A stretch of DNA of 64,000 bases from a virus, in IMG/VR virus record IMGVR_UViG_3300048583_000198, positions 1-64,000 of that record; one strand, given 5' to 3'. Under the pieces are notes generated by a model that worked only from the letters and a program-made list of their open reading frames with translations, ran no database searches and had not been told where the DNA came from. A program made the position numbers and the translations under genes. Positions 20,147 to 58,451 of this stretch are shown piece by piece (within the stretch, counting starts at the first letter, position 1; each line of letters starts with the position of its first letter).

Positions 20147-20243
20147 GGATCTTCGTCCGTCTCGAGGCTGTCGCCATCACGGTCCCTGCGCGTGGTGTGC
20201 ACAGGGCCGTACTCATTCGACTCGTCGTCGAGCCCCTGCTTAG
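20091..20243 (+). CDS. small very basic Zn-ribbon-like peptide
   Basis: GAGGAG RBS; MSRTIRKK...CRHHGPCAWC..GRTH. Confidence 0.55.
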   Translation: MSRTIRKKLKGKGKARDGEDLRPSRGCRHHGPCAWCAQGRTHSTRRRAPA

Positions 20244-23200
20244 AACACCTTGGAGTGAATCGTCGCCGTAGGCGAACCCCACATCTGATCCAATCCCGTT
20301 GAGTTGTCGATGCCACGCTCGTAGATAGCACCGTCCAACGGTCCCGGAGTCCCCACAACATTGCCCAGCCCCTGGGACACAAAGAACGAAAAGGGATTTT
20401 TCCGGAAGCGGTTCAACAGCACGTTCTGTGCACGCAACGTGAACTGACTCCACCAAATCATTCCGTACGTTTCGAGCGATGCACGCATCCGGCCAGGGTT
20501 GGTCTGATACGAAATCAACTCATCACGCACTTCATCACGTGCCTTTTCAACGGTTGCACCGTTCTCAATCATGTGCTGGAAGATCGCATAGCGTGCCAGG
20601 AAGTCACCCGCCTGAATCGCCTTTGATAGCGCATCATGTAGAGTACTGTCCTTTGCAAACAGTGCATTGGCCAGAATGGTTGGTGCCTTCGGGTGAACCT
20701 TCTCACGCAGATGGTTGTTCATCCAGCCAGCCAGATCACCCAGGTAGCTGTGTGACGGACTCTCTTCGAGACCTTCCGGCAGATCACTCAGCTCACCGGC
20801 TTCGATCAATGGGTAGATCGACAGGCGCTCAATCGAACGACGCTTTGCCGTCTGTATGGTGCGGAGACGTTCTTTCTCCACATCATCGGTTGTGCCAGCA
20901 ATCTGGATGCGCAGCTGAATGACTTCCCGCTGCAGTCGGTTGTATGCCTGCACTTCCCGCATACCCTGTCGGTACCACTTCGCCATACGGGAAGGCGGTA
21001 CGCCGTTGGCAATGACGAGATGCATTGCGCTCTGGAAGTTCTGGTAGGCAACCACCAAGCTTCGAACGATGATCAAGTCCTTTGCGGTGGCAACACCTTC
21101 CTTAAGTGCCTGTTCAGCTGCAAGGAAAATCTGTGTGCCCTTCGGTCCAGCAAACACCGTCTGGATGAGACCCAACAGAATCTTGCGCGTATCAGGATTC
21201 AACGACGCATCGCCCGTGTAGATCTCGAGCGCACCTGCGTTGTGATAGCCAATCGTGTTGGCCAACAGATCCTTGCGGACCATCACTGGGCCACCAAACG
21301 CATCAGCCAGATCGCGCTTGATGTCAGCCGGGATGTTCTCCCACGCACGCGCCACCTGCTTGTCGGTGCTCGAATTCACCATTTCATATTCGGCTTCACG
21401 TCCAGCGTCTTTACCTTCCTTCCACTGGTTCACCATCAGCTTGATGGCTTCCTGGTTCAATCGACGAGCCATGTTCTCTTCGGTGATACGACCGAGCTTC
21501 TTGCCGATTGAAACGTGGAGAAGCGTGTTGTTGCCCTTCAAGCTCTCGCGGACGATGGTCGGGTCGAGCATGCGCTCGTAGCCCATCACTTCACCCTGGA
21601 AGTTGAACACTGCTACAAGGTTGCTGTCACGGCCCTTGGTGCGCTGGATATAGCTGACAACCTGCTGGTTACTCAGCATCGTCCCAACCTCCGGCGTCAC
21701 AGAAGCGGCGGTGGTGTAATTGATACCCATCGCGGTCTGCTGCACGGTTGCAATGATGCCCTGCGAGAACACTGGCGGCGGCGTGTAACGACGGCTGTAG
21801 TAGTACAGATCGCTTTCCGGATCGCCAGAAGTCTGCGGATACTTCTTGCCCTTGATGTAGCCGAGCTGCTCGAGCTGTGCTCCCTTAATGCCATTGGCGA
21901 TGACCACGGATGAACGTGGGTCAGTCGACATGGGGAGACTGTCCTTCCAGTAGACATACCGGTACTCAGTACGCTGGTGCTGCTGTTCAGCTTCCTTAAC
22001 GTGCTTGAGCATGCCCACGAGCTTGTCCATGGACTCGGGGTGAGCCCTGAAGTATTGGCCCACCTTGGCTCGCTCAGAGGCCGCCAGGTACTCGATGGCG
22101 TACAGGGTGACCAACTGATCGGCATCGGCCACAAGGCTGTCTGGAGCCGTTCTGCGACGGCCATTGAGGTCATCTGCGATGGCTCGAGCATTGCGCAGCA
22201 GTTCCTGGGCAATCCCCGGCTTCGGCTTGCGGTGCACGAGGTAGTAACCCAGGTTCTGAGCGTCGATGTAATTATCAACTTTAGATTCAAGAACGGTGAT
22301 CATCCGCCGACGCTCAGCATCGTTAAGGTACATCTCAGCCGCCGAGCTACCCAGCACACTGACATCCAACCGGCCAAAGGCTTCGAACAGCGTGTTCCAG
22401 CCGTCGAAGTCCTCCGGGAAAAGTTTGCTCAGTTCCCTGGGGAGCGTGTTGTCGAACATGGAACGGGTCTGGTTGATCGCCGTCATCATGGCGTTGTGCG
22501 CCCGATAGATGAGTCGGCCATCGCCCTTAGTGCCAGCCAAAGCAGCAACCAGATCCTGGAGCCAACGCTGATCGGTGTGCGTGTTCACAGCTGCAATCAG
22601 ACCGCTTCCAAAGGCCGCAGCGCCCTTCTCAGTGGTCAAGGCAGCGATGCCCTTGAGCAACGTGTCGACGTACTGTGGGGCACGTGGAGCGGCGTCAGCG
22701 GCTTTCTGGCCAAGCTTCTCCATCATCCGGTTACCAAGGCGGTCCAGACGGCTGGTCACCGTGGCGTAGTAGCTCTGCTCCAAGTCCTTCTCAACCAGCA
22801 TTGCTGAAATGGCTTCATTCAGCATGTTGCCGCCTGAATCCTGTTGAGCATTGTTGAGTGCCTTGTCTATTAAGGCATCAGCAAGAGTCTGCTCATCCCG
22901 ACCAGCCCACAGCCGGTTCAGCTGTGCACCGAAGGTCGGCTCAACAGCAGCCAGTGCCATGACGGCTGCTACGACATCAGGCGACTTGTTGAACAGGTTC
23001 TTCTGAGGATGCTTCGAGAACGTGGCATCCACAAACTGCTCGAGTTCGGGAGACCGCTGACCCACACGCAACAGCGTGTAGACACGGGTGAACAAACGCT
23101 GCTGTTCTGGCGACAAGTTGTATGCCGTCACTGCCATGGCTTGAGTAGCGAGGTTCTCGCGCTGCACGCCAGCCAGCTGAATGTTCTGTCCCTGGGCCAT

Positions 23201-26200
23201 ACGCTGGAACAGATCGACGTACGCATCTTCAGTCAGCTGCTCAAGCGTAGCCAAACCGTCTTCTGGGACATGCTGACTCAACCGAGTCGACACACCGTCA
23301 ACGAGTCGGGCATCAGCCGGTACGCTGTCAGTCAAACTGCGGAACACATCCATGGCTTCGTTGTAGAAGTCATTGGCCGGTTCAATCTTGATGATGAAGC
23401 GCAGGATTTGCTTGACGCGGTTGATCACGCGCTGAACAAAACCAGGCGACAATTCTTCGATCACCGCGTCTTCGGTGAACACGTACGCCAACATTTCGCC
23501 CAGCTCATCTTGTGGCTGACCGTGCCAGTCATACGAAGTCATGACTCGCTGCACAAACCCAACGCGGCCAACGGCTGGCAACTTCTTGAACCGTTCCATG
23601 AGCTGCACGAGATCGTTAATTGGACCACGCAGCTCTACTGGCACCTGATTGATGTTCGAGAAGAAGTTGTCGATGTGTCGCGTGAAGATTGTGTGAATCA
23701 ACTCATGCAGCATCACCGAGGGTGAAGCCACCTTGAGCATGATGAAGCTGCCGGACGCAACGCCGGTCGTCACGCTGAAGCGGTGCTTGTGCATGCCACG
23801 CTGTTCAATCGTGTTGTTCCAGGCTTCTTCCGTGTCAGCAAGTTCCACCGACAGGTCAGCTGGCAGCAGGTTACGGATACGCTTCCAGACCGTACGATGG
23901 ATGGCATTCTTCCATTTCATCGCATCCAGGGCAGCGATTACTGCCGCACGATCGAGCTTCTTGTTGTTCACTTCGAAGGAAGTCTTCAGACCCTGATCTG
24001 TTTTCACCGTGCTCACAGATGCCTTGCCCGTCAGGCGGACATTTCGGAATACGGGCTCACCATCGTCCGTCTGCAGATTGTCCGTGCGCAGAACTTGGTT
24101 CTCGCGGATCTTCTCTTCAAGTTCGGCATCGCTGTACCGAGACTCAAACGTGATGATGCCTGCTCGCTTAGCACGCAGGTACATACGGATTGCGCTCGGG
24201 TGAACACTCTTGTCCGAGTCGTAAGCCACCCCAGCATCAGCCGCCATCTGCAACACCTTCACCAGACGCCGCAGCCCCGCACTCATGCCGTTCACAAGGC
24301 TTGGCTTAGCCGTGAAGGTATTGCGACCACGCCAACGCGGTCCCTTCATAATCACGTCAATGAAGCCTTCCTCGTCTTCAATACGGGTGGCTTCCGGATG
24401 CTTGTACTGATCTGGGTAACGGCCAGCTTCACGTGGACCCACTTCAGAGATGTCAGCAACCTGAGTACGAGGAGCGTCTTCCTCGAGCGATAGCTCGAAG
24501 TCGAAATCAAGCGACGCACTGCTGCGCACTTCACCACCAGGCGTGTTGAATTTGCCACCACCACCCATTTGATAAACGGTGTGCTTACCAGCAAGCAGCT
24601 CTTCTTGGCCGGTACGCTGTTCTCGATGTAGCTGGTTAAACTCGTCAACCGCTTCATTGAACCGAGAAGCCCATGAAGCAAAATCCTCGATGAACATCTT
24701 CTCATTGGGCTGCATGCTGTTGAAGGTATCAACGAGTGCATTGCGCTCAGTCTCAGTCGCTGCATCTAACAAGATCCGCATATCAGCAACCATTCCCTGG
24801 AAGCTGTTCAGAATGTCAAAGCCAGCTGTGGCCCACACGGCTTCATTCAAGGCCGTTCCAGCGGCCTCAATGTCGGTGACCTTCAGATCAATACCGTCGA
24901 ACACGTTCGTGGCATTCCACGCTTTCTGGAAGAAGCGAACACCCATCGAAGCATCGCCACCCGAGATGGTGAGCAAGGCCAGGATGCTGACACCGACAGG
25001 ACGAGGCGCAGGCGAGTCGAGATTGGCATCCATCGAAGTACCAAGACCCGTGATGGACGTTGCGTTTGGATTGAAGTCAGTGTTGTTCAAGCTGACGGTC
25101 TTGGGACCGTTGAGCGTGTTGAACGACAGGTCAATCGTTTCAGACATCAGGCGGTCATACTCGTCACGGCTGAGATCGTACAAACCAGTCTTCTTGTACT
25201 TCTCAAGCAGCGCCGCATTCTCAGGCTTAGCTTTGATCCATTCCTGAAGCTTTTGGTCCCACTGAACCTTCTTCATCATGTAGGCAAAGTTGGTCAGCTT
25301 AACCAGAGTATTGGTGACCTGCACAACACGACCTTTCTCACCGCCGTAAGCTTTGCTCATTGCAGAAGCCAAACCATCTAATGAGCGATGCCAGCGCACA
25401 GCATCCCAATTTTTGGCCTTGCTTAGCTGCTTTACATCCATGCCAAAACTTTCGTGGCCACGGAGCAACGTCTCAAGATGGCCCATCTGAGCCACCAGCT
25501 GCTGACGACGAGTTTCATCCGTCGTTCGATCCAATTCGTTCTTGGCTTTGATCCAGTTGAGATTGATGTTACGTACAACATCACTCCATAGTTGACGTTT
25601 AATCCCTGTTGGTCCACCGCCATATTGAACAGGAATCACGGCCAGCTTACCGGCATCTCGACGGAAGAGAACTTGAGGAAGACCCTTCACCTCAACACGC
25701 TCGCCGTTGAATACAACGGACATGTTCGGCGTTTCCTTCGTTTGAGGCAACACCTCAATGAGTCCAGCTGCTTCAAGCAGGAACAACTGACCCTTCAGCG
25801 GATTGATCAGGTTCGGATACTGCTTGAGAAGATCAGCCAGTCCCTTCACGAAGTGATAGCGAGCACGCATGTTGATGCGGCCATAGAAGTCGTCGCTCTC
25901 GTATGCTTCACGCATACGATCACGCTCAGTCTCGTAGGTTGCATCCTGCTTATCCAGGAATAAGCCGCCCTGCTCAAGGTTGGCTCCATTACGCACACCC
26001 AAGCCGAAGAACAGTTCGGTGTTGAATGCACCGTTGGTCTTGCCGTCAATTTCGAACATCAAGTAGTTCGTGAACGTGCCCTTACCATCCTGAGCAAGGA
26101 TGCGACCGTAAGTCAACAGAGCCGCCAGCTCACGAGGGCTGTAAGGCTTGTCACGGTTTTCCTTCAGTGCTGCAAGCAGTGCAGCCTGATCAGTGCGAGC

Positions 26201-29200
26201 TGCCCATACCTTCTTGGCAAGAGCAGCGTGCTTACTGCGAATCTTCTCCCATTCACGAAGTACTGAAGCCGGATCATTGATGTCAGTCTTGACGCCAAAT
26301 GCCTGAGCCAAAGTCATCTGCATGTACTTGGCATGATTCGGATCGTCAAGATTCAACTCCTCTTCTGCGGAGGAGAACATGTCACGCACAAACTTGTTGT
26401 TCTGCGGACCCATCACGGTCTTGACGCGGTTGTTGATACCGATGTGGTACTTGTAGAACAAGCCCTTGGCACCACCCTCCGTTAGCTCGTGGTATTTGCG
26501 TACTGCAGCAAACTCCATCGTGAGTCGCTCGTTCTGGCTCTTGAGCCATTCACGCACGCTCGAGGGAACGGTGCCGTCATCTTTCTCGGGCACAGCGCCA
26601 TACCAACCGGTGAGAACCTGCTTCATCAGGTCATCGCCCAGCGTAGTGAACATGCCATACATGTCGCCAAACAGACCATGGCGAACCTTTTGCAGGTTCT
26701 CCAGGGCAGTCTGCATCGGTGCAGAAAGCTTCGTCCTGGTGTACTGAATCGTGTTGTCGACTTCAGTATGCGGCTCAGACTGCGCTTCCCATACACGCTC
26801 ACCATCCAGCTGTTCCTGCACAGCGTCGATGGTATTCATATTGTTCTTAGCAGCGTTCCGGGCAGACTCGGTTGGGACCAGAATCTGCATGGTATCCATG
26901 TACGAGGCATCGCTGAGCGTACCGTCCGAGGTCGCCTCCAGCGTGCGCAGATTCGTGTTGTTCCATGCATCCGTTTCTGGATTGAAGTCTGCCTTCATGT
27001 CGAAGTTTTGGGACTCAATCAGAGCAGCGAGCGTTGAGAGCCCATAAGACAGGAACGTGCCCTGCGAAATGTCGAGGCTGGCGCTACGCTTTGCCGTGAC
27101 ACCGAGCAAGGTCATCGCAACGTCAGCGATATCCTGTGCCCACACTTCCTTGAAGATGTCACGCGACAGTCGACCTTGCTCATCGACAAGCTCACCTGTG
27201 AACTTGGCGGAGTTGCGGAACATGACGATAGCGCCAGCCCAGGCAAATGCCTTGATCACTTCGTCAGGCACCGACATCTTGCCGCTCTCTTCTTTCTGCC
27301 AGAGTGCGGATGCAACGCCGTACGGCTTATCCAGGTAGTCTTCCTTACCGGACTGCGCGATATCGAGGATGCCCTGCTGGAGAATGCCACGACGAGTGCC
27401 ATCCTTGAACTTCGGACCCTTGCCAGCCAGCAGTTGATAAAGAGCACCGGCCTCACTGCGATAGAGATCGAACGCAGTTGAGGTCTCTTCACCACGGGTA
27501 ACGGTCATTGACTTGAACTTCTCAAGCCAACCATCAACCGTATTCGCTGGGTCGATGTTGAACCACGTGGCCAGACTGTCCCGCGCCCAGCTTGTTACTG
27601 CGAGGAGGGGGTTTTGCGTTTGAGGCTGCGGAGCAGATTCCTGAGCAGTGTTGCTATCAACCCCAGCGTCAGGAACACCAGCAGGCTCTGCTGGAGGATT
27701 CTCTCGAGCCAACCTGGCTTCAACATCTCGCTCGTAGGCTCGGACGGCTTCTCGTTCGGCTGCATCTTCCTTCTCCTGTTCTAGGCGAACTTTCTCTTCT
27801 GCAGCCAACTTCTCAGCCGCATCCTTTCGAGCAGCTGCTTCAGCTGCTTTCGTTTTCTTTTCGTCACGAGCAATCCTCTCTTCTTCAACCTTTTCAGTTG
27901 CCTGAATAGCTGCACGCTCAGCACGAGCCTCTCGCTCAGCTTCCGTTTCAGCCTTTTTCTGGGCAGCCTCCTCCTCAGCTTTCTTCTTGGCTTCAGCCAG
28001 GATAGCGGCATTCGGAGATTCTTCCTGAGGCTGAGCAGCAGCTTGTCGAGCAGCAATGATGGCATCGAGCTTAGCCTTCTCAGCGGCAGCTCGTTCCATG
28101 GATGCAGCAGCGAGCTGTGGGGCAGTCTTCGCAACTGTGTCCCACATGCGCTCAGCTTCAGCAACGTCAGCCAACACTTCATTGACCATGTTGCGGGAAG
28201 CTTCAGAACCACGGCCACTGATGTAGATGCGGAATGGATTACCCACTCGCTTGCCATCTTCATCTAGCGTGGCAGTGCCTTCGACTTCCACGTAGTTGGT
28301 CTTAAGGTATTCGGCGTACTCAGGCTTACGAACGTTCTCAGGCTTCCTAAGCAAGTCAACAAGTTCGCCAGCCTTCCTGAACGCTTCACCGCGTGCACGA
28401 AGATGTTGAAGGAATCCAGCCGCCTTGGTGGCTGCGCCAATCGGAGCCTTGGTGTCAGATACACCTTCGACACGCAGGGCTGAGGCAATACCGTTGATGT
28501 AGTCCAACATGCCACGCTTGCGAGTGGCTGCTTTACCCGTCGACCGATTCTCCCAACCCTTGTTGAGGATCTGTTCACGGGTTTCTTCAGTCTTGGAAGT
28601 CGGACCAGGACGAGCCACTGCAGCAGGAATCTTTTTGAGTTCCTGCACGAGCGGCTTCAGAGGCTCAGGGACAGCTTCAATCGGCAGACGGGCAATGTTC
28701 ACCGCTGCCACTGCCTGCACCGTCTGCTGGGCTTCTACGTCGCCCTGGTTGGCTGCTTCAACAGCTGCAGCGATCTCTTCGTCGCTCTTCTGAGCAATCT
28801 GTGCCTTGGCTTCGTCGATCTTACCGGCAGTTGCCAGTTCCTCAGATTGAATGATGGCCTTGGCCTGAGCCTCGTCTACTTCACCATCTTCAGTTCGAGT
28901 GATGTCAGCACGAGTCTCGAGTGCATTGGCCGTGAGGACAGCCTCTACATCAGAGTCGGCACTCTTTGCCGGAGCCACTTCACCAACAGGCAGTTTATAT
29001 GAAGTCGGTTGAGTTGCGTTCTCTTCCGTTGAAGGCTCAGAAACGACTGGAGCCGTTTCTACAGCGGGCTCACCAGATGAGCCTGTGCTGTCGGGAACCG
29101 TTTCTTCGACTGCCGCCGTAGATTGGATCACCTCCTCGGAATTCGGAGTAGCTTCGATTGCCTCAGAAGCAGCCGCAACAGCCGCACCTTCAGGCGTTTG

Positions 29201-30217
29201 AGCACGCGATTTGAGACCAGAAGCGGCTGCGGCCAGCCCTTGACGCACACCTGCGCCAATAGCCTGAGCTGAGTTCCTGACGAGTCCAGGAGCCCGCATA
29301 CCACCTGTGAACAGAGAACTGATAACGGCTGCTTCGCCAGTAGCCGCACCGACACCTTCCATTGGATCTCGACCGGCAAGCACGTTGTCGGCCACCGTTT
29401 GACCAATTGCCATGCCGCCTTCTTCGAACACTTCGGCACCGATGGCCGAGGCGGTAGGACGGATTGCATCGCCCAGGAACTGGGAAACAACGTTGGTGCG
29501 TCGACCCAGCGGATCGAGTTCGAATCCCGGAGTAAGCTTGCCAAGTACGGTACCCAAACCAGCACTGAATGCACCAGCCAGAAGTGCTTGACGTTCGGCT
29601 TCAGCTGGATCACCCGTCTCCTGCAAAGCTCGTTCATACGTTTGGCCATATGCACCAGCACCTTCCAAAACACCACTGAGTGCAGCCACGCGATTTATAG
29701 TAGCGAGTTCACCTGTACCGGTAGCTACACGGCTGAGCACTGTTGGAACAGCTGCTTTCGAAGCAACACCCATGGCTCGAGCAGCAGGACCGATCATCAG
29801 ATACGGAGTCTGCGAAGCCACATCAGCAATAACATTACCGCCGCTGAAGGTGTTGCCTACAGCTTCAACGAAGCCGGCTACTTCGCCTTCTTCAGCTGTA
29901 ACACGAGCATTACGGGCAGCATCATCTCTACGTTCAGCCAGATACGCAGGTGAACGGAGTTGATCAAGAGTCTGTGAGTTTCGAACGGCATCAGCCAGTT
30001 CATACGTTGGGAGAGTGGCCAGCGGAATGCTGCCAAGACTCTGCAACGTATCCAAGATACCAACGGCGGAATCGCCTACCGTGTTGCGATGACGATAGGC
30101 ATCGTTCTCTCGCAAGGCACCAACAAGGTCATTCGACTCGAGAACGGATGTGTCACGAAGTTCTGCCGACGACAGCAACTTGAGTTCTGGAAGCGAAGAC
30201 TTGATGTCGTCAGCCAT
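20240..30217 (-). CDS. virion-encapsidated RNA polymerase (N4 gp50-like vRNAP)
   Basis: 3325 aa, no Cys noticed on reading; motif A EIDGKTNG, motif B RDAGKLAVIPVQYG, motif C VFDG; synteny. Confidence 0.93.
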   Translation of the reverse strand: MADDIKSSLPELKLLSSAELRDTSVLESNDLVGALRENDAYRHRNTVGDSAVGILDTLQSLGSIPLATLPTYELADAVRNSQTLDQLRSPAYLAERRDDAARNARVTAEEGEVAGFVEAVGNTFSGGNVIADVASQTPYLMIGPAARAMGVASKAAVPTVLSRVATGTGELATINRVAALSGVLEGAGAYGQTYERALQETGDPAEAERQALLAGAFSAGLGTVLGKLTPGFELDPLGRRTNVVSQFLGDAIRPTASAIGAEVFEEGGMAIGQTVADNVLAGRDPMEGVGAATGEAAVISSLFTGGMRAPGLVRNSAQAIGAGVRQGLAAAASGLKSRAQTPEGAAVAAASEAIEATPNSEEVIQSTAAVEETVPDSTGSSGEPAVETAPVVSEPSTEENATQPTSYKLPVGEVAPAKSADSDVEAVLTANALETRADITRTEDGEVDEAQAKAIIQSEELATAGKIDEAKAQIAQKSDEEIAAAVEAANQGDVEAQQTVQAVAAVNIARLPIEAVPEPLKPLVQELKKIPAAVARPGPTSKTEETREQILNKGWENRSTGKAATRKRGMLDYINGIASALRVEGVSDTKAPIGAATKAAGFLQHLRARGEAFRKAGELVDLLRKPENVRKPEYAEYLKTNYVEVEGTATLDEDGKRVGNPFRIYISGRGSEASRNMVNEVLADVAEAERMWDTVAKTAPQLAAASMERAAAEKAKLDAIIAARQAAAQPQEESPNAAILAEAKKKAEEEAAQKKAETEAEREARAERAAIQATEKVEEERIARDEKKTKAAEAAARKDAAEKLAAEEKVRLEQEKEDAAEREAVRAYERDVEARLARENPPAEPAGVPDAGVDSNTAQESAPQPQTQNPLLAVTSWARDSLATWFNIDPANTVDGWLEKFKSMTVTRGEETSTAFDLYRSEAGALYQLLAGKGPKFKDGTRRGILQQGILDIAQSGKEDYLDKPYGVASALWQKEESGKMSVPDEVIKAFAWAGAIVMFRNSAKFTGELVDEQGRLSRDIFKEVWAQDIADVAMTLLGVTAKRSASLDISQGTFLSYGLSTLAALIESQNFDMKADFNPETDAWNNTNLRTLEATSDGTLSDASYMDTMQILVPTESARNAAKNNMNTIDAVQEQLDGERVWEAQSEPHTEVDNTIQYTRTKLSAPMQTALENLQKVRHGLFGDMYGMFTTLGDDLMKQVLTGWYGAVPEKDDGTVPSSVREWLKSQNERLTMEFAAVRKYHELTEGGAKGLFYKYHIGINNRVKTVMGPQNNKFVRDMFSSAEEELNLDDPNHAKYMQMTLAQAFGVKTDINDPASVLREWEKIRSKHAALAKKVWAARTDQAALLAALKENRDKPYSPRELAALLTYGRILAQDGKGTFTNYLMFEIDGKTNGAFNTELFFGLGVRNGANLEQGGLFLDKQDATYETERDRMREAYESDDFYGRINMRARYHFVKGLADLLKQYPNLINPLKGQLFLLEAAGLIEVLPQTKETPNMSVVFNGERVEVKGLPQVLFRRDAGKLAVIPVQYGGGPTGIKRQLWSDVVRNINLNWIKAKNELDRTTDETRRQQLVAQMGHLETLLRGHESFGMDVKQLSKAKNWDAVRWHRSLDGLASAMSKAYGGEKGRVVQVTNTLVKLTNFAYMMKKVQWDQKLQEWIKAKPENAALLEKYKKTGLYDLSRDEYDRLMSETIDLSFNTLNGPKTVSLNNTDFNPNATSITGLGTSMDANLDSPAPRPVGVSILALLTISGGDASMGVRFFQKAWNATNVFDGIDLKVTDIEAAGTALNEAVWATAGFDILNSFQGMVADMRILLDAATETERNALVDTFNSMQPNEKMFIEDFASWASRFNEAVDEFNQLHREQRTGQEELLAGKHTVYQMGGGGKFNTPGGEVRSSASLDFDFELSLEEDAPRTQVADISEVGPREAGRYPDQYKHPEATRIEDEEGFIDVIMKGPRWRGRNTFTAKPSLVNGMSAGLRRLVKVLQMAADAGVAYDSDKSVHPSAIRMYLRAKRAGIITFESRYSDAELEEKIRENQVLRTDNLQTDDGEPVFRNVRLTGKASVSTVKTDQGLKTSFEVNNKKLDRAAVIAALDAMKWKNAIHRTVWKRIRNLLPADLSVELADTEEAWNNTIEQRGMHKHRFSVTTGVASGSFIMLKVASPSVMLHELIHTIFTRHIDNFFSNINQVPVELRGPINDLVQLMERFKKLPAVGRVGFVQRVMTSYDWHGQPQDELGEMLAYVFTEDAVIEELSPGFVQRVINRVKQILRFIIKIEPANDFYNEAMDVFRSLTDSVPADARLVDGVSTRLSQHVPEDGLATLEQLTEDAYVDLFQRMAQGQNIQLAGVQRENLATQAMAVTAYNLSPEQQRLFTRVYTLLRVGQRSPELEQFVDATFSKHPQKNLFNKSPDVVAAVMALAAVEPTFGAQLNRLWAGRDEQTLADALIDKALNNAQQDSGGNMLNEAISAMLVEKDLEQSYYATVTSRLDRLGNRMMEKLGQKAADAAPRAPQYVDTLLKGIAALTTEKGAAAFGSGLIAAVNTHTDQRWLQDLVAALAGTKGDGRLIYRAHNAMMTAINQTRSMFDNTLPRELSKLFPEDFDGWNTLFEAFGRLDVSVLGSSAAEMYLNDAERRRMITVLESKVDNYIDAQNLGYYLVHRKPKPGIAQELLRNARAIADDLNGRRRTAPDSLVADADQLVTLYAIEYLAASERAKVGQYFRAHPESMDKLVGMLKHVKEAEQQHQRTEYRYVYWKDSLPMSTDPRSSVVIANGIKGAQLEQLGYIKGKKYPQTSGDPESDLYYYSRRYTPPPVFSQGIIATVQQTAMGINYTTAASVTPEVGTMLSNQQVVSYIQRTKGRDSNLVAVFNFQGEVMGYERMLDPTIVRESLKGNNTLLHVSIGKKLGRITEENMARRLNQEAIKLMVNQWKEGKDAGREAEYEMVNSSTDKQVARAWENIPADIKRDLADAFGGPVMVRKDLLANTIGYHNAGALEIYTGDASLNPDTRKILLGLIQTVFAGPKGTQIFLAAEQALKEGVATAKDLIIVRSLVVAYQNFQSAMHLVIANGVPPSRMAKWYRQGMREVQAYNRLQREVIQLRIQIAGTTDDVEKERLRTIQTAKRRSIERLSIYPLIEAGELSDLPEGLEESPSHSYLGDLAGWMNNHLREKVHPKAPTILANALFAKDSTLHDALSKAIQAGDFLARYAIFQHMIENGATVEKARDEVRDELISYQTNPGRMRASLETYGMIWWSQFTLRAQNVLLNRFRKNPFSFFVSQGLGNVVGTPGPLDGAIYERGIDNSTGLDQMWGSPTATIHSKVF

Positions 30218-54271: not shown

Positions 54272-54303
54272 CCGGATTACACGTGCACTACGTGCACATC
54301 GGA
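54272..54303 (+). promoter_or_regulatory. vRNAP hairpin promoter P1
   Basis: CCGGATTACAC-GTGCAC-TAC-GTGCAC-ATC-GGA; template loop C-GTA-G centred at -11, predicted +1 54301. Confidence 0.8.
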
Positions 54304-54332
54304 CCAACCTCGGTCCTTCCATGGAGTTCATC

Positions 54333-54542
54333 ATGTCCCTCATCAAGACCGCCTTCTCTGGCATGGTCCAGAAGATGCAGCTCGAGAACGCACTGCAGCT
54401 GCAGAAGCACCAGCACCTGCGTCCTCCGCAGATCCGACTGCAGATCGCACAGGGCCTCACCGCCATCGACGAGCAGCTCGCAGCTGACACCAAGCTGAAG
54501 AAGCGCTTCGACACCATCACGCTCACGTTGCCCACAACCTGA
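54333..54542 (+). CDS. first early protein (hypothetical)
   Basis: GGAG RBS, strongly biased codons, directly after P1. Confidence 0.75.
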   Translation: MSLIKTAFSGMVQKMQLENALQLQKHQHLRPPQIRLQIAQGLTAIDEQLAADTKLKKRFDTITLTLPTT

Positions 54543-54573
54543 GCTAACGGCCTTCCCTCGCAAGAGGGAAGAG

Positions 54574-54605
54574 CCGGAATACACGTGGCCTTCGGCCACT
54601 CAGCG
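54574..54605 (+). promoter_or_regulatory. vRNAP hairpin promoter P2
   Basis: CCGGAATACAC-GTGGCC-TTC-GGCCAC-TCA-G; template loop C-GAA-G, predicted +1 54603. Confidence 0.78.
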
Positions 54606-54798: not shown

Positions 54799-54834
54799 GT
54801 GCAATCCCGCACTTCGTTTCTCTGGAGAAAGTTC

Positions 54835-55092
54835 ATGAGCATTGGAAACATCGTCGAGAGCGCCAAGCCTGCTGGCAAGCGCGTCACCTACGGCATCCTC
54901 ATCAAGGCTGGCACGTTCAGCCTGAACGAGTGGGGCCTCACCGAGAGCGATGCGAAGCAGGTGCACGAGATCCTCGTGGCCCGTAAGGACGAGCCGTTCG
55001 AGCTGAACGGTCTCACCTTCGCTCGCCGTCCGCCGTCCGACCTGTCGGCGCAGCTGGCCGCGTTCAAGGCCAAGGCTCCGGCAGCCGTCTGA
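54835..55092 (+). CDS. early protein (hypothetical)
   Basis: GGAG RBS, biased codons, directly after P3. Confidence 0.75.
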   Translation: MSIGNIVESAKPAGKRVTYGILIKAGTFSLNEWGLTESDAKQVHEILVARKDEPFELNGLTFARRPPSDLSAQLAAFKAKAPAAV

Positions 55093-56063: not shown

Positions 56064-56372
56064 ATGCTCAATGGCATCGCAGTGTTTGTCATGCTCACCA
56101 TGCTGTTCATGTGGTGCGGCAAGAAATGGCGGCAACGCCTTGTCGGGATGGGATTCCTGACAGACATCTCGGTGCACATCCTGTGTCAGCTACTGCTCGG
56201 CGGTGCCAATGAGGGCCGCCTTGCAGTGCTGTTCGGGTGTGTGCTGTTCAATTTGCACTTGATGACCTACCGCAAGCTCTGGGGCTATTCAGCCTTCGAA
56301 GAGGGAGCATGGGTTTTCCATCGTGGTCTGTTCAACTTCCGGAGGAACCATGGAACATCTCAGGCTGGATAA
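56064..56372 (+). CDS. early membrane protein
   Basis: AGGAG RBS; three hydrophobic segments. Confidence 0.7.
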   Translation: MLNGIAVFVMLTMLFMWCGKKWRQRLVGMGFLTDISVHILCQLLLGGANEGRLAVLFGCVLFNLHLMTYRKLWGYSAFEEGAWVFHRGLFNFRRNHGTSQAG

Positions 56373-57993
56373 CCAGCGTTCACATGCTGTGAGTCTCGAT
56401 CCAGACACACAGCACATCTTCCACTACGTGTGGATACGGGGCCGATGCAGCTTGGTAGAGCTGTTTCCCGTGTTCGCACGTAAGGTGGAAGGATTCCTGG
56501 AGAAGCTCGAGAGCTTGCTGGTGCAGGGCCATCTGCATACAGATCTCAAGAGCATCTGGGCCAGGGACCGACAGATCGTGTTCACCGAAACTCCGCTGTC
56601 TCGACCGGAAGAGAGTGACAGCTGGGTGCTCAAAGCTCTGAACGAGCAGGTGCACGTCGTCGGTGATGATTTTACGTGGAATGGTGCCATCCACATCAAT
56701 CGTGACTTTCAGTTGCAGTGGCACAAGATGACGCTCAAGCCCGGAGATCGCTTCTATTTGGGCCATTTCGAGGATTTTCGTGGCCGCATCTACTGCAAGG
56801 GCCACATCCTCACGTATCAGGGCACCGACTTTCAGAAGTCCCTGATTCGTACTGAGCCCTATCAAGTGACAGACCTCGAGTGGCTGCACATGGACGTAGC
56901 TCGTAGCTATGGACTAGACAAAGCCACATGGGCAGAGCGTCTGGCATGGAGCTTGGACCATCCTGAGCTGCAACAAGGTGCCAAGGAGCCCTTCCTGTAC
57001 AAGAGCGCCTGGGAAGCTCTGCAGAAGGCTCTCAGGGGTGAAATGATTGATCACCCTGTCAGTCTGGATGCCACGGCCTCTGGCATTCAGTGCCTGTCGC
57101 TTATGGCGCAGGATCCAGTGAGTGCCTTGGCCGTCAACCTGGGTAGCCAGGTGGTCAACAATCCGTATCGGAAAGTCCAGGAGGAGATGGGACCGTACGA
57201 CTACGAGCGTGTGAAGCAGGCCACGATGACGCACTTCTACGAGAGTGTGCTCACACCCTTGCAGCTGTTTGGCGATGACTATCCTAAGTTCCTGGAAGCC
57301 ATGGAGAAATCCATGCCAGGGCCTACGGCTATTCGTGATGCCATCGCCAGCTGCATGACGTACCAGGATCGGTACAGGTGGGTGATGATGGATGGGTATG
57401 AGGTCGACATGAAGGTGACCACGCCCATTGAATGCACCATGGATATCGGTGCTGGCCATCAGATGACGTGGATAGAGCATCGACAAGCAGCCGTGGCCAC
57501 CAAGGGGCTCACTGCCAATGTGACGCATAGCCTGGATGCCCTCGTTCTGAGGGAAGTGCTGCGTCGTACCCACTGTCCCTACCAGTGGTACCAGCATGAA
57601 ACGCCTTTCGAAGAGCTGCGTGAGAAGGACATCCTGCTCATGCAGAGCATCATTCGGTGGCGACAGACTCAATTCCTGTCATTCGAGTTCATGGACCATT
57701 GTGATGGCATGAACCAGCATCTCGTTCCTCGAGAGCTGAGAGAGGCCGTGGACGCACGTACAAGCGCCGATTGCATGTACATCCAGCCCATCCACGACTG
57801 CTATCGAGTGAAAGCCAATGACGCCAGCCGCCTCTTCCAGATTGTTCGGGAAGTGATGGCTGACTTGGCGTATGCCAAGACGGCGGAATGGCTGCTGCCT
57901 CAGCTCGGATACAAAGGCAGCATCAAGGACGATGAATGCAGGAGAACGGCATTGAAGGAGCAAGTCCTTAATAGCCTCTACCTGATATGTTAG
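56350..57993 (+). CDS. T7-like RNA polymerase; N4 RNAP II subunits 1 and 2 fused in one chain
   Basis: DFRGRIY, YQG, DVARSYGLDK, motif A LDATASGIQ, motif B RVKQATMTHFY, HSLDA, motif C IHDCY; GGAGG RBS. Confidence 0.9.
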   Translation: MEHLRLDNQRSHAVSLDPDTQHIFHYVWIRGRCSLVELFPVFARKVEGFLEKLESLLVQGHLHTDLKSIWARDRQIVFTETPLSRPEESDSWVLKALNEQVHVVGDDFTWNGAIHINRDFQLQWHKMTLKPGDRFYLGHFEDFRGRIYCKGHILTYQGTDFQKSLIRTEPYQVTDLEWLHMDVARSYGLDKATWAERLAWSLDHPELQQGAKEPFLYKSAWEALQKALRGEMIDHPVSLDATASGIQCLSLMAQDPVSALAVNLGSQVVNNPYRKVQEEMGPYDYERVKQATMTHFYESVLTPLQLFGDDYPKFLEAMEKSMPGPTAIRDAIASCMTYQDRYRWVMMDGYEVDMKVTTPIECTMDIGAGHQMTWIEHRQAAVATKGLTANVTHSLDALVLREVLRRTHCPYQWYQHETPFEELREKDILLMQSIIRWRQTQFLSFEFMDHCDGMNQHLVPRELREAVDARTSADCMYIQPIHDCYRVKANDASRLFQIVREVMADLAYAKTAEWLLPQLGYKGSIKDDECRRTALKEQVLNSLYLIC

Positions 57994-58064
57994 TTAATGG
58001 TGGCCTTAGCAAGGATGCTGAAGGCCACCTGTCCCCTCACTTAACAACAGACTTAGGAGTTGAA

Positions 58065-58451
58065 ATGAACAGAAACGTCGAGTTTTCGGTCCTCGTGGGT
58101 AAGACCATCGAGGCCATCTGGGGCGGTGCTGGCGACGACAGCATCAAGTTCACGTGCACCGATGGTACCCAGTACCAGATGTATCACTACCAGGATTGCT
58201 GCGAGTCCGTCTATGTCGAAGACATCGCTGGTGACCTGCAGGATATCGTCGGCAGCCCAATCCTCGTTGCTGAGGAATTGAGCAGCAGTGAGGATCCGCC
58301 TGGGGTGAAGCTGAGTGACTACCGGGAATCCTTCACGTGGACGTTCTACAAGCTCGATACGGCCAAGGGGGGTGTCACCATCCGTTGGTACGGCTCAAGC
58401 AACGGCTACTACTCAGAGCGGGTCGACTTCCATGAGGTGACTCATGGCTGA
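58065..58451 (+). CDS. conserved phage hypothetical protein
   Basis: MYHYQDCCESVYVEDI, FTWTFY, WYGSSNGYYSE; AGGAG RBS. Confidence 0.8.
   Translation: MNRNVEFSVLVGKTIEAIWGGAGDDSIKFTCTDGTQYQMYHYQDCCESVYVEDIAGDLQDIVGSPILVAEELSSSEDPPGVKLSDYRESFTWTFYKLDTAKGGVTIRWYGSSNGYYSERVDFHEVTHG

Follow-up and report, generated by a model that had tools for sequence, protein, structure and literature searches.

A gene in a 64,000-nucleotide stretch of viral DNA (hereafter the window; positions 1 to 64,000 of IMG/VR record IMGVR_UViG_3300048583_000198) specifies an RNA polymerase (RNAP) of the N4 RNAP II type as one chain of 547 residues. We consider it likely that this is the one such enzyme of its phage, and that a labile subunit boundary explains how it came to be in one piece. 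The portions of a 2015 review that treat these enzymes describe N4 RNAP II as a heterodimer of separately encoded subunits comprising 673 aa and the N4 enzymes as minimal, with a reduced N-terminal domain; they ascribe a split RNAP II to all phages with a virion RNAP known by 2015, and state that the origin and advantage of heterodimeric versus single-subunit RNAPs remain unclear (PMC4496689, section 9). The window enzyme departs from the heterodimeric plan, being encoded by one open reading frame (ORF) with neither a stop nor a frameshift at the boundary between the equivalents of N4 gp15 and gp16. The gene and its parts are as follows, with residues numbered along the product:

56341-56346, plus strand: Shine-Dalgarno-like GGAGGA, read directly, 3 nt upstream of the ATG
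56350-57993, plus strand: single-chain N4-type RNA polymerase II gene, an ORF of 547 codons and a stop
56350-56583, plus strand: small helical N-terminal remnant, residues 1-78, with helices at 18-30, 35-43 and 49-58 (DSSP on the AF2 model)
56584-56736, plus strand: short stretch in place of T7 RNAP 267 to about 410, residues 79-129 (VIA alignment ranges)
56737-56862, plus strand: T/DxxGR block, residues 130-171, the sole stretch homologous in sequence to N4 gp15
56773-56787, plus strand: DFRGR, the T/DxxGR motif, residues 142-146
56851-56883, plus strand: junction TEPYQVTDLEW, residues 168-178, the gene boundary in N4 and many relatives
56869-57990, plus strand: gp16-equivalent palm and fingers, end to end, residues 174-547 (PHROG 2051 and 6dt7_B superposition)
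57061-57084, plus strand: motif A, SLDATASG, residues 238-245, invariant, with catalytic D240
57208-57246, plus strand: motif B or O-helix, RVKQATMTHFYES, residues 287-299, with K289 and Y297
57784-57807, plus strand: motif C, QPIHDCYR, with IHDC at residues 481-484 and invariant H482 and D483

The open frame extends unbroken on the plus strand from a GTG at 56323 to 57993 in the ORF listing. The start is placed at the ATG at 56350, which gives the 547-aa product, because all 17 full-length homologues aligned begin with MEH(L/M)R. At the junction, QGTDFQKSLIRTEPYQVTDLEWLHMDVARSYGLDK is read in one frame while stops close both others; the ORF, this frame check and BLASTP together bear out the preliminary description, which had reported one uninterrupted 547-aa ORF running through the gp15/gp16 boundary. 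The phage genome (72,442 bases, 98% complete) holds a single gene of the RNAP II type, as judged by its one match to PHROG 2051.

[quoted passage not shown] Every motif named at the outset (DFRGR, DATASG, motif B and IHD) is present, as is THSLD at residues 392-396, and all 32 aligned clade sequences share D240, K289, Y297, H393, D396, H482 and D483 without exception. The alignment places Tyr285 where N4 gp16 and T7 RNAP have the first O-helix Arg; since this Tyr is invariant in the clade, NTP binding may differ from that in gp16 and T7 RNAP. Existing knowledge of the catalytic mechanism of the family is left unchanged by the window enzyme.

Within the family, the closest relative in both sequence and structure is N4 gp16, matched end to end. 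PHROG 2051 is hit with E 4.7e-68, residues 173-547 covering its positions 4-401 of 401, and matches to PHROGs 414 and 2166 also cross the junction; a PDB sequence search returned 6dt7_B first (E 4.9e-25) and 6dt7_A with E 3.8e-4. BLASTP aligned residues 132-175 with N4 gp15 226-269, reaching the very end of gp15 (41% identity, E 1e-8), and residues 174-519 with gp16 5-378 (25% identity, E 7e-30). From these boundaries the gp15-equivalent part comes to about 172-175 aa, in keeping with the roughly 170 aa first estimated, whereas the N4 subunit has 269. The last residue of the gp15 equivalent is joined to residue 5 of the gp16 equivalent, with no added linker. By hhalign, residues 130-168 match gp15 224-262 with a probability of 97.9. 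Orthology to the split N4 RNAP II follows from the existence of split relatives at 64-74% identity.

The AF2 model of the 547-aa chain (pLDDT 87.4, pTM 0.83) has the right-hand palm and fingers fold and superposes on T7 RNAP. Its top Foldseek match is 6dt7_B (E 2e-21), which is also its top structural relative in VIA (Z 35.5, rmsd 2.9, 370 aligned residues, chain 5-404), residues 174-547 lying on gp16 end to end; T7 RNAP (1h38_A) follows with Z 27.7, rmsd 3.2 and 400 aligned residues, model 79-547 against T7 267-883. Our statements on the structure of N4 RNAP II are based on PDB titles and alignments (6DT7, 6DT8 and 6DTA). Measured against N4, with its gp15 (RNAP1, 269 aa) and gp16 (RNAP2, 404 aa), the window enzyme belongs to the same family, comes from a phage that likewise has a virion RNAP and is encoded in the early region; both enzymes are minimal with a reduced N-terminal domain, and the C-terminal end of gp15 has its match in the T/DxxGR block. 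The differences are that it forms one chain of 547 residues rather than a heterodimer of 673, that its part before DxxGR spans about 130 aa as opposed to about 223 with no detectable sequence homology between the two, that identity to gp16 is just 25%, and that Tyr285 replaces the O-helix Arg.

T7 RNAP and the mitochondrial RNAPs are likewise single chains with motifs T/DxxGR, A, B and C, and the window enzyme is collinear with T7 RNAP from T7 267 to the C-terminus; however, the bulk of the promoter-binding N-terminal domain is missing from it, and about 90 residues of T7 268-448, which would correspond to the thumb, have no counterpart. The segment replaced by residues 79-129, T7 267 to about 410, presumably comprises the end of the N-terminal domain and the thumb. 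Model residues 80-170 align with just 90 residues of T7 268-448 (Z 5.8, weak), structural matches to the N-terminal part alone are weak throughout (Z 5.2-5.8), and the AF2 model predicts no long helix in residues 79-135. These alignment ranges suggest that the part before DxxGR has been cut to about 130 aa and that the thumb is apparently absent. The helical remnant at the very N-terminus is modelled with pLDDT 64-79 over residues 11-70 and below 50 over 1-11 and 72-80, and its winged-helix-like matches are weak (Z 3.5-4.0); residues 1-78 have no sequence match to N4 gp15, hhalign finding nothing before residue 130, and no sequence similarity of residues 1-129 to T7 RNAP or gp15 was detected by that program. 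In a greedy hhalign of the clade profile to T7 RNAP, confidence was close to zero everywhere except in residues 130-280 and motif C.

At 547 aa, with an expected mass of about 62 kDa, the enzyme has 62% of the length of T7 RNAP (883 aa, 336 longer). Its description as a one-chain orthologue of N4 RNAP II holds, as does its being much shorter than both T7 RNAP and the 673-aa N4 enzyme. It had also been proposed as possibly among the smallest single-chain enzymes of this kind. Among the shortest it is, although not uniquely so, given clade relatives of 545-546 aa (P0010 and P0013), a marine form of 548 aa (L105) and candidate junction-spanning representatives of 495-546 aa (P0122, P0147, P0151, P0119 and P0138).

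One-piece RNAP II is common in uncultured phages, and the window variant is one real and not rare instance of it. By phmmer coordinates, 40 of the best 150 representatives at 50% identity span the junction, and the fused form occupies 14 of 54 viral loci and 34 of 80 metagenome loci, the viral-contig loci having come from an alignment query where a single-protein query gave none. A marine N4-like lineage has complete single chains of 548-580 aa, exemplified by L028 (580 aa) and L105, which resemble the window enzyme in crossing the same boundary, in length and in having all motifs, with a virion RNAP in both of the two contigs tested, each 100% complete. They differ in identity (25-26% in alignment A2), in lying in a separate part of the tree, in keeping a gp15-sized N-terminal part that puts DxxGR at about 217-254, and in being shorter after motif A; at the marine loci no split sisters were found as close as those of the window's clade. 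The INPHARED collection of cultured phages yielded no fused RNAP II, so the prospect raised at the start, that fusions might prove commonplace, is realized among uncultured phages and not among cultured ones. A 'hypothetical protein' of Klebsiella phage K17alpha62, considered as a cultured fusion, is instead a pseudogene annotation on the opposite strand. A literature search of main texts found no published description of a fused N4-type RNAP II, although gene tables in supplements may show one; in the main text of a metagenomic survey of N4-like phages, a term search found no mention of fusion or of RNAP1, RNAP2 or RNAPII (PMC10654107).

Fused and truly split forms coexist within the window's own clade at 62-81% identity, a finding that is new here. 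The census took in 59 clusters with an identity of at least 62%, of which 41 cross the junction, 16 begin at it and 2 are truncated, the status of each cluster being taken from protein length and alignment together with the loci retrieved. Relatives 62-81% identical to the window enzyme are fused, encoded by two overlapping genes that lie in different frames and have a Shine-Dalgarno site apiece, or encoded by two genes with a small gene inserted between them. The split relatives are real genes and not artefacts: in L001, whose pair has 173 and 379 aa, an ATG in a different frame, preceded by GGAGA, lies 2 nt past the TGA stop, in L065 the genes overlap with AGGAGA, a 46-62-aa ORF lies between the two subunit genes in L056, L063, L067 and L068, and L064 has a 680-nt insert there. 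In the fused relatives the conserved anchors are set apart by linkers of 13 to 45 residues, which fall into several classes that do not align to one another, and several independent fusions fit this lack of alignment. Some long linkers retain 'M(S/T)P.EWL', which fits either direction of change, and those of P0034-P0040 show a faint RG.xD resemblance, and nothing further, to the C-termini of the small ORFs in L063, L067 and L068. The mutational step is small, since 8 of 61 split loci elsewhere have a single in-frame stop between both ORFs. The gp15-like part has shrunk to about 170 aa throughout the clade, and its reduction is independent of fusion because split members share it.

At least six to seven switches between fused and split states are needed in the clade, and the hypothesis that the fused form arose just once is rejected. 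A tree of 64 rows requires 8 state changes, at least 6 of them forced by starred branches; 7 fall within the 55 clade rows, or 6 without P0041, a doubtful row whose contig measures 1275 nt and whose 'split' state may stem from faulty gene calling. The constraint that the 39 fused clade rows be monophyletic is rejected (delta lnL 334.9, AU p 1.7e-10). The subunit boundary would thus be labile in this clade, the window form representing its short-linker fused state, and we think small indels in a split ancestor a likelier source of the window fusion than a primitively unsplit condition, although the three trees are compatible with either polarity.

That primitively unsplit condition, with the clade keeping an ancestral one-piece N4-type RNAP II and its split members arising by secondary fission, is the strongest of the alternatives and still an unlikely one. 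It draws on a quick tree rooted with T7, in which the clade branches as the sister group of every other N4-type RNAP II (support 87), but this placement brings together two long branches, T7 and a clade stem of 3.3-3.4 changes per column, and carries a long-branch warning; the clade root in the same tree is a trichotomy of one fused row, a mostly split group and a mostly fused group, and within the last the most parsimonious history starts from a fused ancestor that split several times. A FastTree tree adds fused earliest branches after the T7 root (P0202; P0193+P0204) and a fused sister pair of the clade (P0093+P0109, weak support 82), yet with another outgroup set purely split lineages take the base (P0048, P0049, P0047/52/55, P0051, P0053/56 and P0054/57). 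Linker classes that cannot be aligned are unexpected from a single inherited fusion, and nothing marks the enzyme as an intermediate, because residues 1-129 match neither T7 RNAP nor gp15. The earlier suggestion that the enzyme links T7-type RNAPs to split N4-type ones is not borne out by the three trees, which need many fused/split changes and fit either polarity; the only one of them to place the clade next to the T7 root is the one under the long-branch warning.

Fusion from a split ancestor across a labile boundary remains our preferred reading. A broader reading, one we would hold doubtful for now, is that the gp15/gp16 boundary may be a nearly neutral toggle, thrown by tiny indels or single stop-codon changes, and that the 547-aa, apparently thumb-less chain may near the minimum for a T7-family RNAP. 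Counted toward it are at least 6 flips inside this one clade (62-81% identity) and no fewer than 14 in the family as a whole; were the boundary indeed nearly neutral, the heterodimer would have no obligatory function. In a bolder form, the clade, which one tree puts beside the T7 root, would keep the ancestral unsplit state. The same enzyme fused, split with overlap or split by an inserted gene at 62-81% identity amounts to a natural experiment, and because close relatives hold all these forms, the question of heterodimer advantage becomes testable with a few cloned genes. A compact T7-family RNAP with so drastically reduced an N-terminal part may also interest those working on minimal polymerases or small enzymes for in-vitro transcription.

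It is quite improbable that the fused gene yields two proteins after all, through initiation at Met181 or proteolysis, or that Tyr285 signals the loss of normal activity. An in-frame ATG (Met181) does lie just past the junction, and the former start Met survives in some fused relatives (e.g., MSPLDWL, MTPREWL), but no Shine-Dalgarno-like sequence precedes Met181, and the junction is modelled as ordered, with pLDDT 94 for residues 161-170 and 96 for 171-180. Replacement of the O-helix Arg might point to a crippled enzyme; against this, it is the sole RNAP II gene of the genome, and every member, whether split or fused, has Tyr285, which makes it a clade trait under selection and not decay. Conservation of 41 clusters over their full length, with invariant catalytic residues, tells against both ideas.

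The one-chain gene in the window is confirmed as real and not an assembly artefact. Assembled contigs of four of four runs, from four studies, span at least 56794-56909 with no inserted or deleted letters, a span that takes in the interval 56820-56900 singled out for checking, and one 10.6-kb contig spans all 1644 bases with 41 substitutions and no gaps. That an assembly or sequencing error erased a stop or frameshift that separated two genes, a natural worry in a metagenome-derived record given that single-base errors are common in such assemblies, is scarcely credible in view of these indel-free contigs, of an identical junction in L057, an independent assembly 99% identical, and of 41 junction-spanning clusters from several sources. 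One run labelled 'metagenomic RNA-Seq', probably DNA, has a contig across the junction.

Two further features bear on the genomic setting of the gene:

20240-30217, minus strand: virion RNA polymerase gene, 3325 aa (PHROG 2206, E 7.5e-252)
54273-54599, plus strand: upstream hairpin region, with hairpins of 6-bp stem and 3-nt loop at 54283-54297 and 54585-54599

The 3325-aa ORF supplies the giant virion RNAP, and given this gene the phage is classed, from its sequence, as N4-like. Both hairpins are preceded by a CGGA(T/A)TACAC box and are candidate early promoters of the virion RNAP. The 12 kb around the gene had no megablast match among cultured phages, and PHROG, Pfam and PDB sequence searches found no homologues of gp1, gp2 or Drc among the neighbouring small ORFs, another point of difference from N4. 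Small proteins encoded nearby include that of a 97-aa ORF (54799-55092) and a DUF7448 protein (57987-58451). Cofactors of the gp2 and Drc type are poorly conserved, so that a lack of matches says little.

We infer the activity of the window enzyme, its single-chain state in vivo, its template preference and its cofactor need by analogy with N4, as portrayed in the relevant parts of the 2015 review (PMC4496689). Situated in the early region, with the candidate hairpin promoters upstream of it, the gene would be transcribed by the injected virion RNAP, and its product would in turn transcribe middle genes from locally single-stranded promoters. A small ssDNA-binding cofactor would presumably be needed, since little of the promoter-binding N-terminal domain is left and a thumb is apparently lacking.

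The preliminary description proposed that the RNA polymerase (RNAP) II of this phage, which in phage N4 is a heterodimer of gp15 (RNAP1) and gp16 (RNAP2), is made here as one uninterrupted and very compact chain, and this proposal is borne out. The gene in question is the following:

56350-57993 (+), single open reading frame (ORF) for a 547-aa N4-type RNAP II

Its start codon is the ATG at 56350, 3 nt past a GGAGGA, and 17/17 aligned full-length homologues start with MEH(L/M)R. The product scores above the Pfam RNA_pol cut-off; residues 173-547 cover positions 4-401 of the 401-position gp16-like profile PHROG 2051, and PHROGs 414 (T7-like) and 2166 (N4-like RNAP) align to residues 124-280, across the N4 subunit boundary. 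The top match in a PDB sequence search is the N4 RNAP II large subunit (6dt7_B, E 4.9e-25, residues 174-518), and residues 223-265 of the small subunit (6dt7_A) match window residues 129-171 only. By BLASTP against the N4 proteins taken from NC_008720, residue 175 aligns to gp15 residue 269, the last, and residue 174 to gp16 residue 5, with no extra linker between the two equivalent parts. Among the close relatives of the enzyme (the clade, 62-81% identity, fused and split), D240, K289, Y297, H393, D396, H482, and D483 are invariant in 32/32 sequences. A complete T7-family catalytic core is encoded in one chain, by the sole such gene besides that of the virion RNAP. At the first O-helix arginine position, presumably that of T7 R627, N4 gp16 has Arg whereas the window enzyme has Tyr285 (57202-57204), invariant in the same 32 of 32 sequences, split and fused alike; an Arg two residues past it is common, but not invariant, in the clade.

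The fusion is real. A 99% identical locus from another assembly (L057) has the identical junction, and in contigs of four sequencing runs, drawn from four studies, the junction is crossed every time (4/4) with zero inserted or deleted letters; one 10.6-kb contig covers the gene from end to end, with 41 substitutions and 0 gaps.

An AlphaFold2 model based on an 80-row alignment (mean pLDDT 87.4, pTM 0.83) places the junction in blocks with pLDDT 94 and 96. The best Foldseek match is again 6dt7_B (E 2e-21), and VIA-align superposes model residues 174-547 on residues 5-404 of that chain (Z 35.5, rmsd 2.9, 370 aligned) and residues 79-547 on residues 267-883 of T7 RNAP (1h38_A; Z 27.7, rmsd 3.2, 400 aligned). 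From the VIA-align ranges, the T7 counterpart of residues 79-135 amounts to ~148 residues. When residues 1-175 were modeled separately (pLDDT 68.8), 90 residues of segment 80-170 align within T7 268-448 (Z 5.8) and 98 residues of segment 74-175 within N4 gp15 118-269 (Z 5.6), both weak alone and both in agreement with the full-length alignment. To judge from these models, some 90 T7 residues and some 50 gp15 residues would be without counterpart in the window enzyme, a segment that, by the domain limits of T7 RNAP, would probably be the thumb. Profile-profile comparison of the N-terminal part of the clade with 47 gp15-like sequences aligned residues 130-168 (probability 97.9) and detected zero sequence homology for residues 1-129. 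The N-terminal part is extremely reduced, and since the split proteins of one relative (L001, a 68,757-base contig, 68% identity) measure 173 and 379 aa, its compactness characterizes the whole clade and is independent of fusion. A three-helix element at residues 12-68 (56383-56553) resembles AsnC/Lrp-type winged-helix DNA-binding domains at a level (Z 3.5-4.0, ~52 aligned) too weak for a claim.

One-piece enzymes are not rare in uncultured phages. An exhaustive HMMER search gave 1883 hits at E <= 0.001, and sorting of the 150 top-ranking cluster representatives (50% identity) put 40 in the class whose single chain (451-729 aa) runs across the junction and 101 in the class that begins at it; the other 9 are different forms or fragments. 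A motif scan found T/DxxGR and motif A together in one ORF at 14 of 54 loci from viral contigs and at 34 of 80 from metagenomes, figures that are not prevalences because the loci were chosen by conserved peptide patterns; at least 4 of the 34 (782-786 aa) resemble ordinary T7-type enzymes. Two marine proteins whose sequences were read whole, of 580 aa (L028) and 548 aa (L105), have all motifs, and a virion RNAP is present on both contigs tested (those of L028 and L041, each 100% complete and ~75 kb). Among cultured phages no fused form was found, the window and both marine proteins matching RNAP1 and RNAP2 there as separate features; one apparent fused gene in a cultured phage is an annotation artefact. 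A reading of the window enzyme as possibly the smallest of its kind, and not just among the smallest, is unsupported as stated, for five junction-spanning protein clusters have shorter candidate lengths: P0122 (495 aa), P0147 (529), P0151 (531), P0119 (539), and P0138 (546). P0122, P0147, and P0138 have T/DxxGR, motif A, motif C, and a normal tail of 57-63 aa past motif C. Among distant N4-like loci (L051-L054; L017, L019, L020, L043, and L050), some have a motif A ORF only 147-177 aa long, so that their large subunit is interrupted or split once more, and some have 400-770 nt between the genes for the two subunits.

Within the clade, the two states lie side by side. Of the 77 proteins found by a word-indexed protein search, 59 are at least 62% identical; by alignment, the junction lies within 41 of the 59 (545-570 aa for the complete ones), 16 start exactly there (372-382 aa, with starts such as MTPIEWL or MNFTPRQWL), and 2 are truncated. 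Where the DNA was read, the split state is genuine. The small-subunit gene of L001 ends PYVIGD-TGA, and the large-subunit ATG, preceded by GGAGA, follows 2 nt past the TGA in a different frame; at L065 the two genes overlap, with AGGAGA, and at L056, L063, L067, and L068 a 46-62-aa ORF sits between them. In L067 and L068 the inserted ORF starts with a hydrophobic stretch resembling a signal peptide and has conserved cysteines; what L064 carries instead is 680 nt of inserted DNA, with an ORF of 131 aa. In the fused forms, the anchor-to-anchor stretch is mostly 13-17 residues long (the window has 14), but reaches 24-29 in some and 34-45 in clusters P0034-P0040 and P0059; no alignment was found between several of these linker classes. 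At 8 of 61 split loci (L002-L006, L008, L018, and L126) the subunit ORFs lie in the same frame, one stop codon apart, as in the ...KE-TAA-ATC-ATG... of L002; on this reading of the DNA, a fused chain would result from one changed base or from read-through of the stop.

A quick IQ-TREE tree of the gp16-equivalent region (64 rows, 55 clade and 9 distant) requires 8 state changes, and starred branches force 6 or more of these. The 55 clade rows alone require 7, or 6 without P0041, a protein on a 1275-nt contig with a start at an internal-looking MDWL, whose split status may be a calling artefact. Forcing the 39 fused clade rows to be monophyletic lowers the log-likelihood by 334.9 units, and the AU test rejects it (p 1.7e-10). 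The window protein falls in an all-fused 7-row group (96*), nested in a larger group of alternating split and fused rows. With one outgroup set, purely split lineages branch at the clade base. Rooting on T7 and a marine T7-like enzyme makes that base a trichotomy and the clade sister to all other N4-type RNAP II, with a long-branch warning from the program. In a rough 148-row FastTree, which has 25 state changes (at least 14 forced), the sister of the clade is a fused pair with weak support (82), and the first branches past the root are fused. A window lineage that is primitively unsplit is an unlikely reading of these trees; the heterogeneity of the linkers and the small mutational step make us lean toward re-fusion. 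The proposed role of the enzyme as a link to T7 finds no support as stated, given the long-branch warning on the T7-rooted placement and the disagreement of the three trees on the basal state.

According to a review (PMC4496689), RNAP II was heterodimeric in every phage then known to have a virion RNAP, and it is unclear how the heterodimer originated and what advantage it gives. No account of a fused form was found in full-text literature, including the main text of a 2023 metagenomic survey of N4-like viruses. What this locus adds is a documented case, with statistical support, of repeated switches between one-piece and two-piece enzymes in a close clade, together with extreme N-terminal reduction.

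The virus record that holds the window comprises 72,442 bases and is an estimated 98% complete. The phage is N4-like, since its 3325-aa protein matches PHROG 2206, the virion RNAP of N4-like phages (E 7.5e-252). Megablast with 12 kb gave zero matches among cultured phages, and the best tblastn matches in Schitoviridae were <30% identical; by these comparisons the phage has no close cultured relative. Around the RNAP gene lie the following:

54283-54297, hairpin GTGCAC-TAC-GTGCAC
54585-54599, hairpin GTGGCC-TTC-GGCCAC
54799-55092 (+), upstream ORF, also conserved in L001
57987-58451 (+), next gene, for a 154-aa DUF7448 / PHROG 2650 protein

Each hairpin (6-bp stem, 3-nt loop) stands directly 3′ of a CGGA(T/A)TACAC box, 1.7-2 kb upstream of the RNAP gene, and the two are candidate virion-RNAP promoters. 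By analogy with N4, the injected virion RNAP would transcribe the early region, with the RNAP II gene downstream of the hairpins, and the 547-aa enzyme, once made, would transcribe middle genes. Lacking the bulk of the promoter-binding domain and, it appears, the thumb, the enzyme would probably need a partner that melts DNA or binds ssDNA, in the way that N4 RNAP II needs gp2; PHROG, Pfam, and PDB sequence searches identified none among the neighboring small ORFs. The DUF7448 gene and the end of the RNAP gene, with its stop, share 7 nt, and the downstream ORFs listed for L001 include no obvious equivalent. The upstream ORF (97-109 aa), present in the fused window and in split L001 (3188-3517), gave no match in family and PDB searches, and is a putative transcription cofactor.
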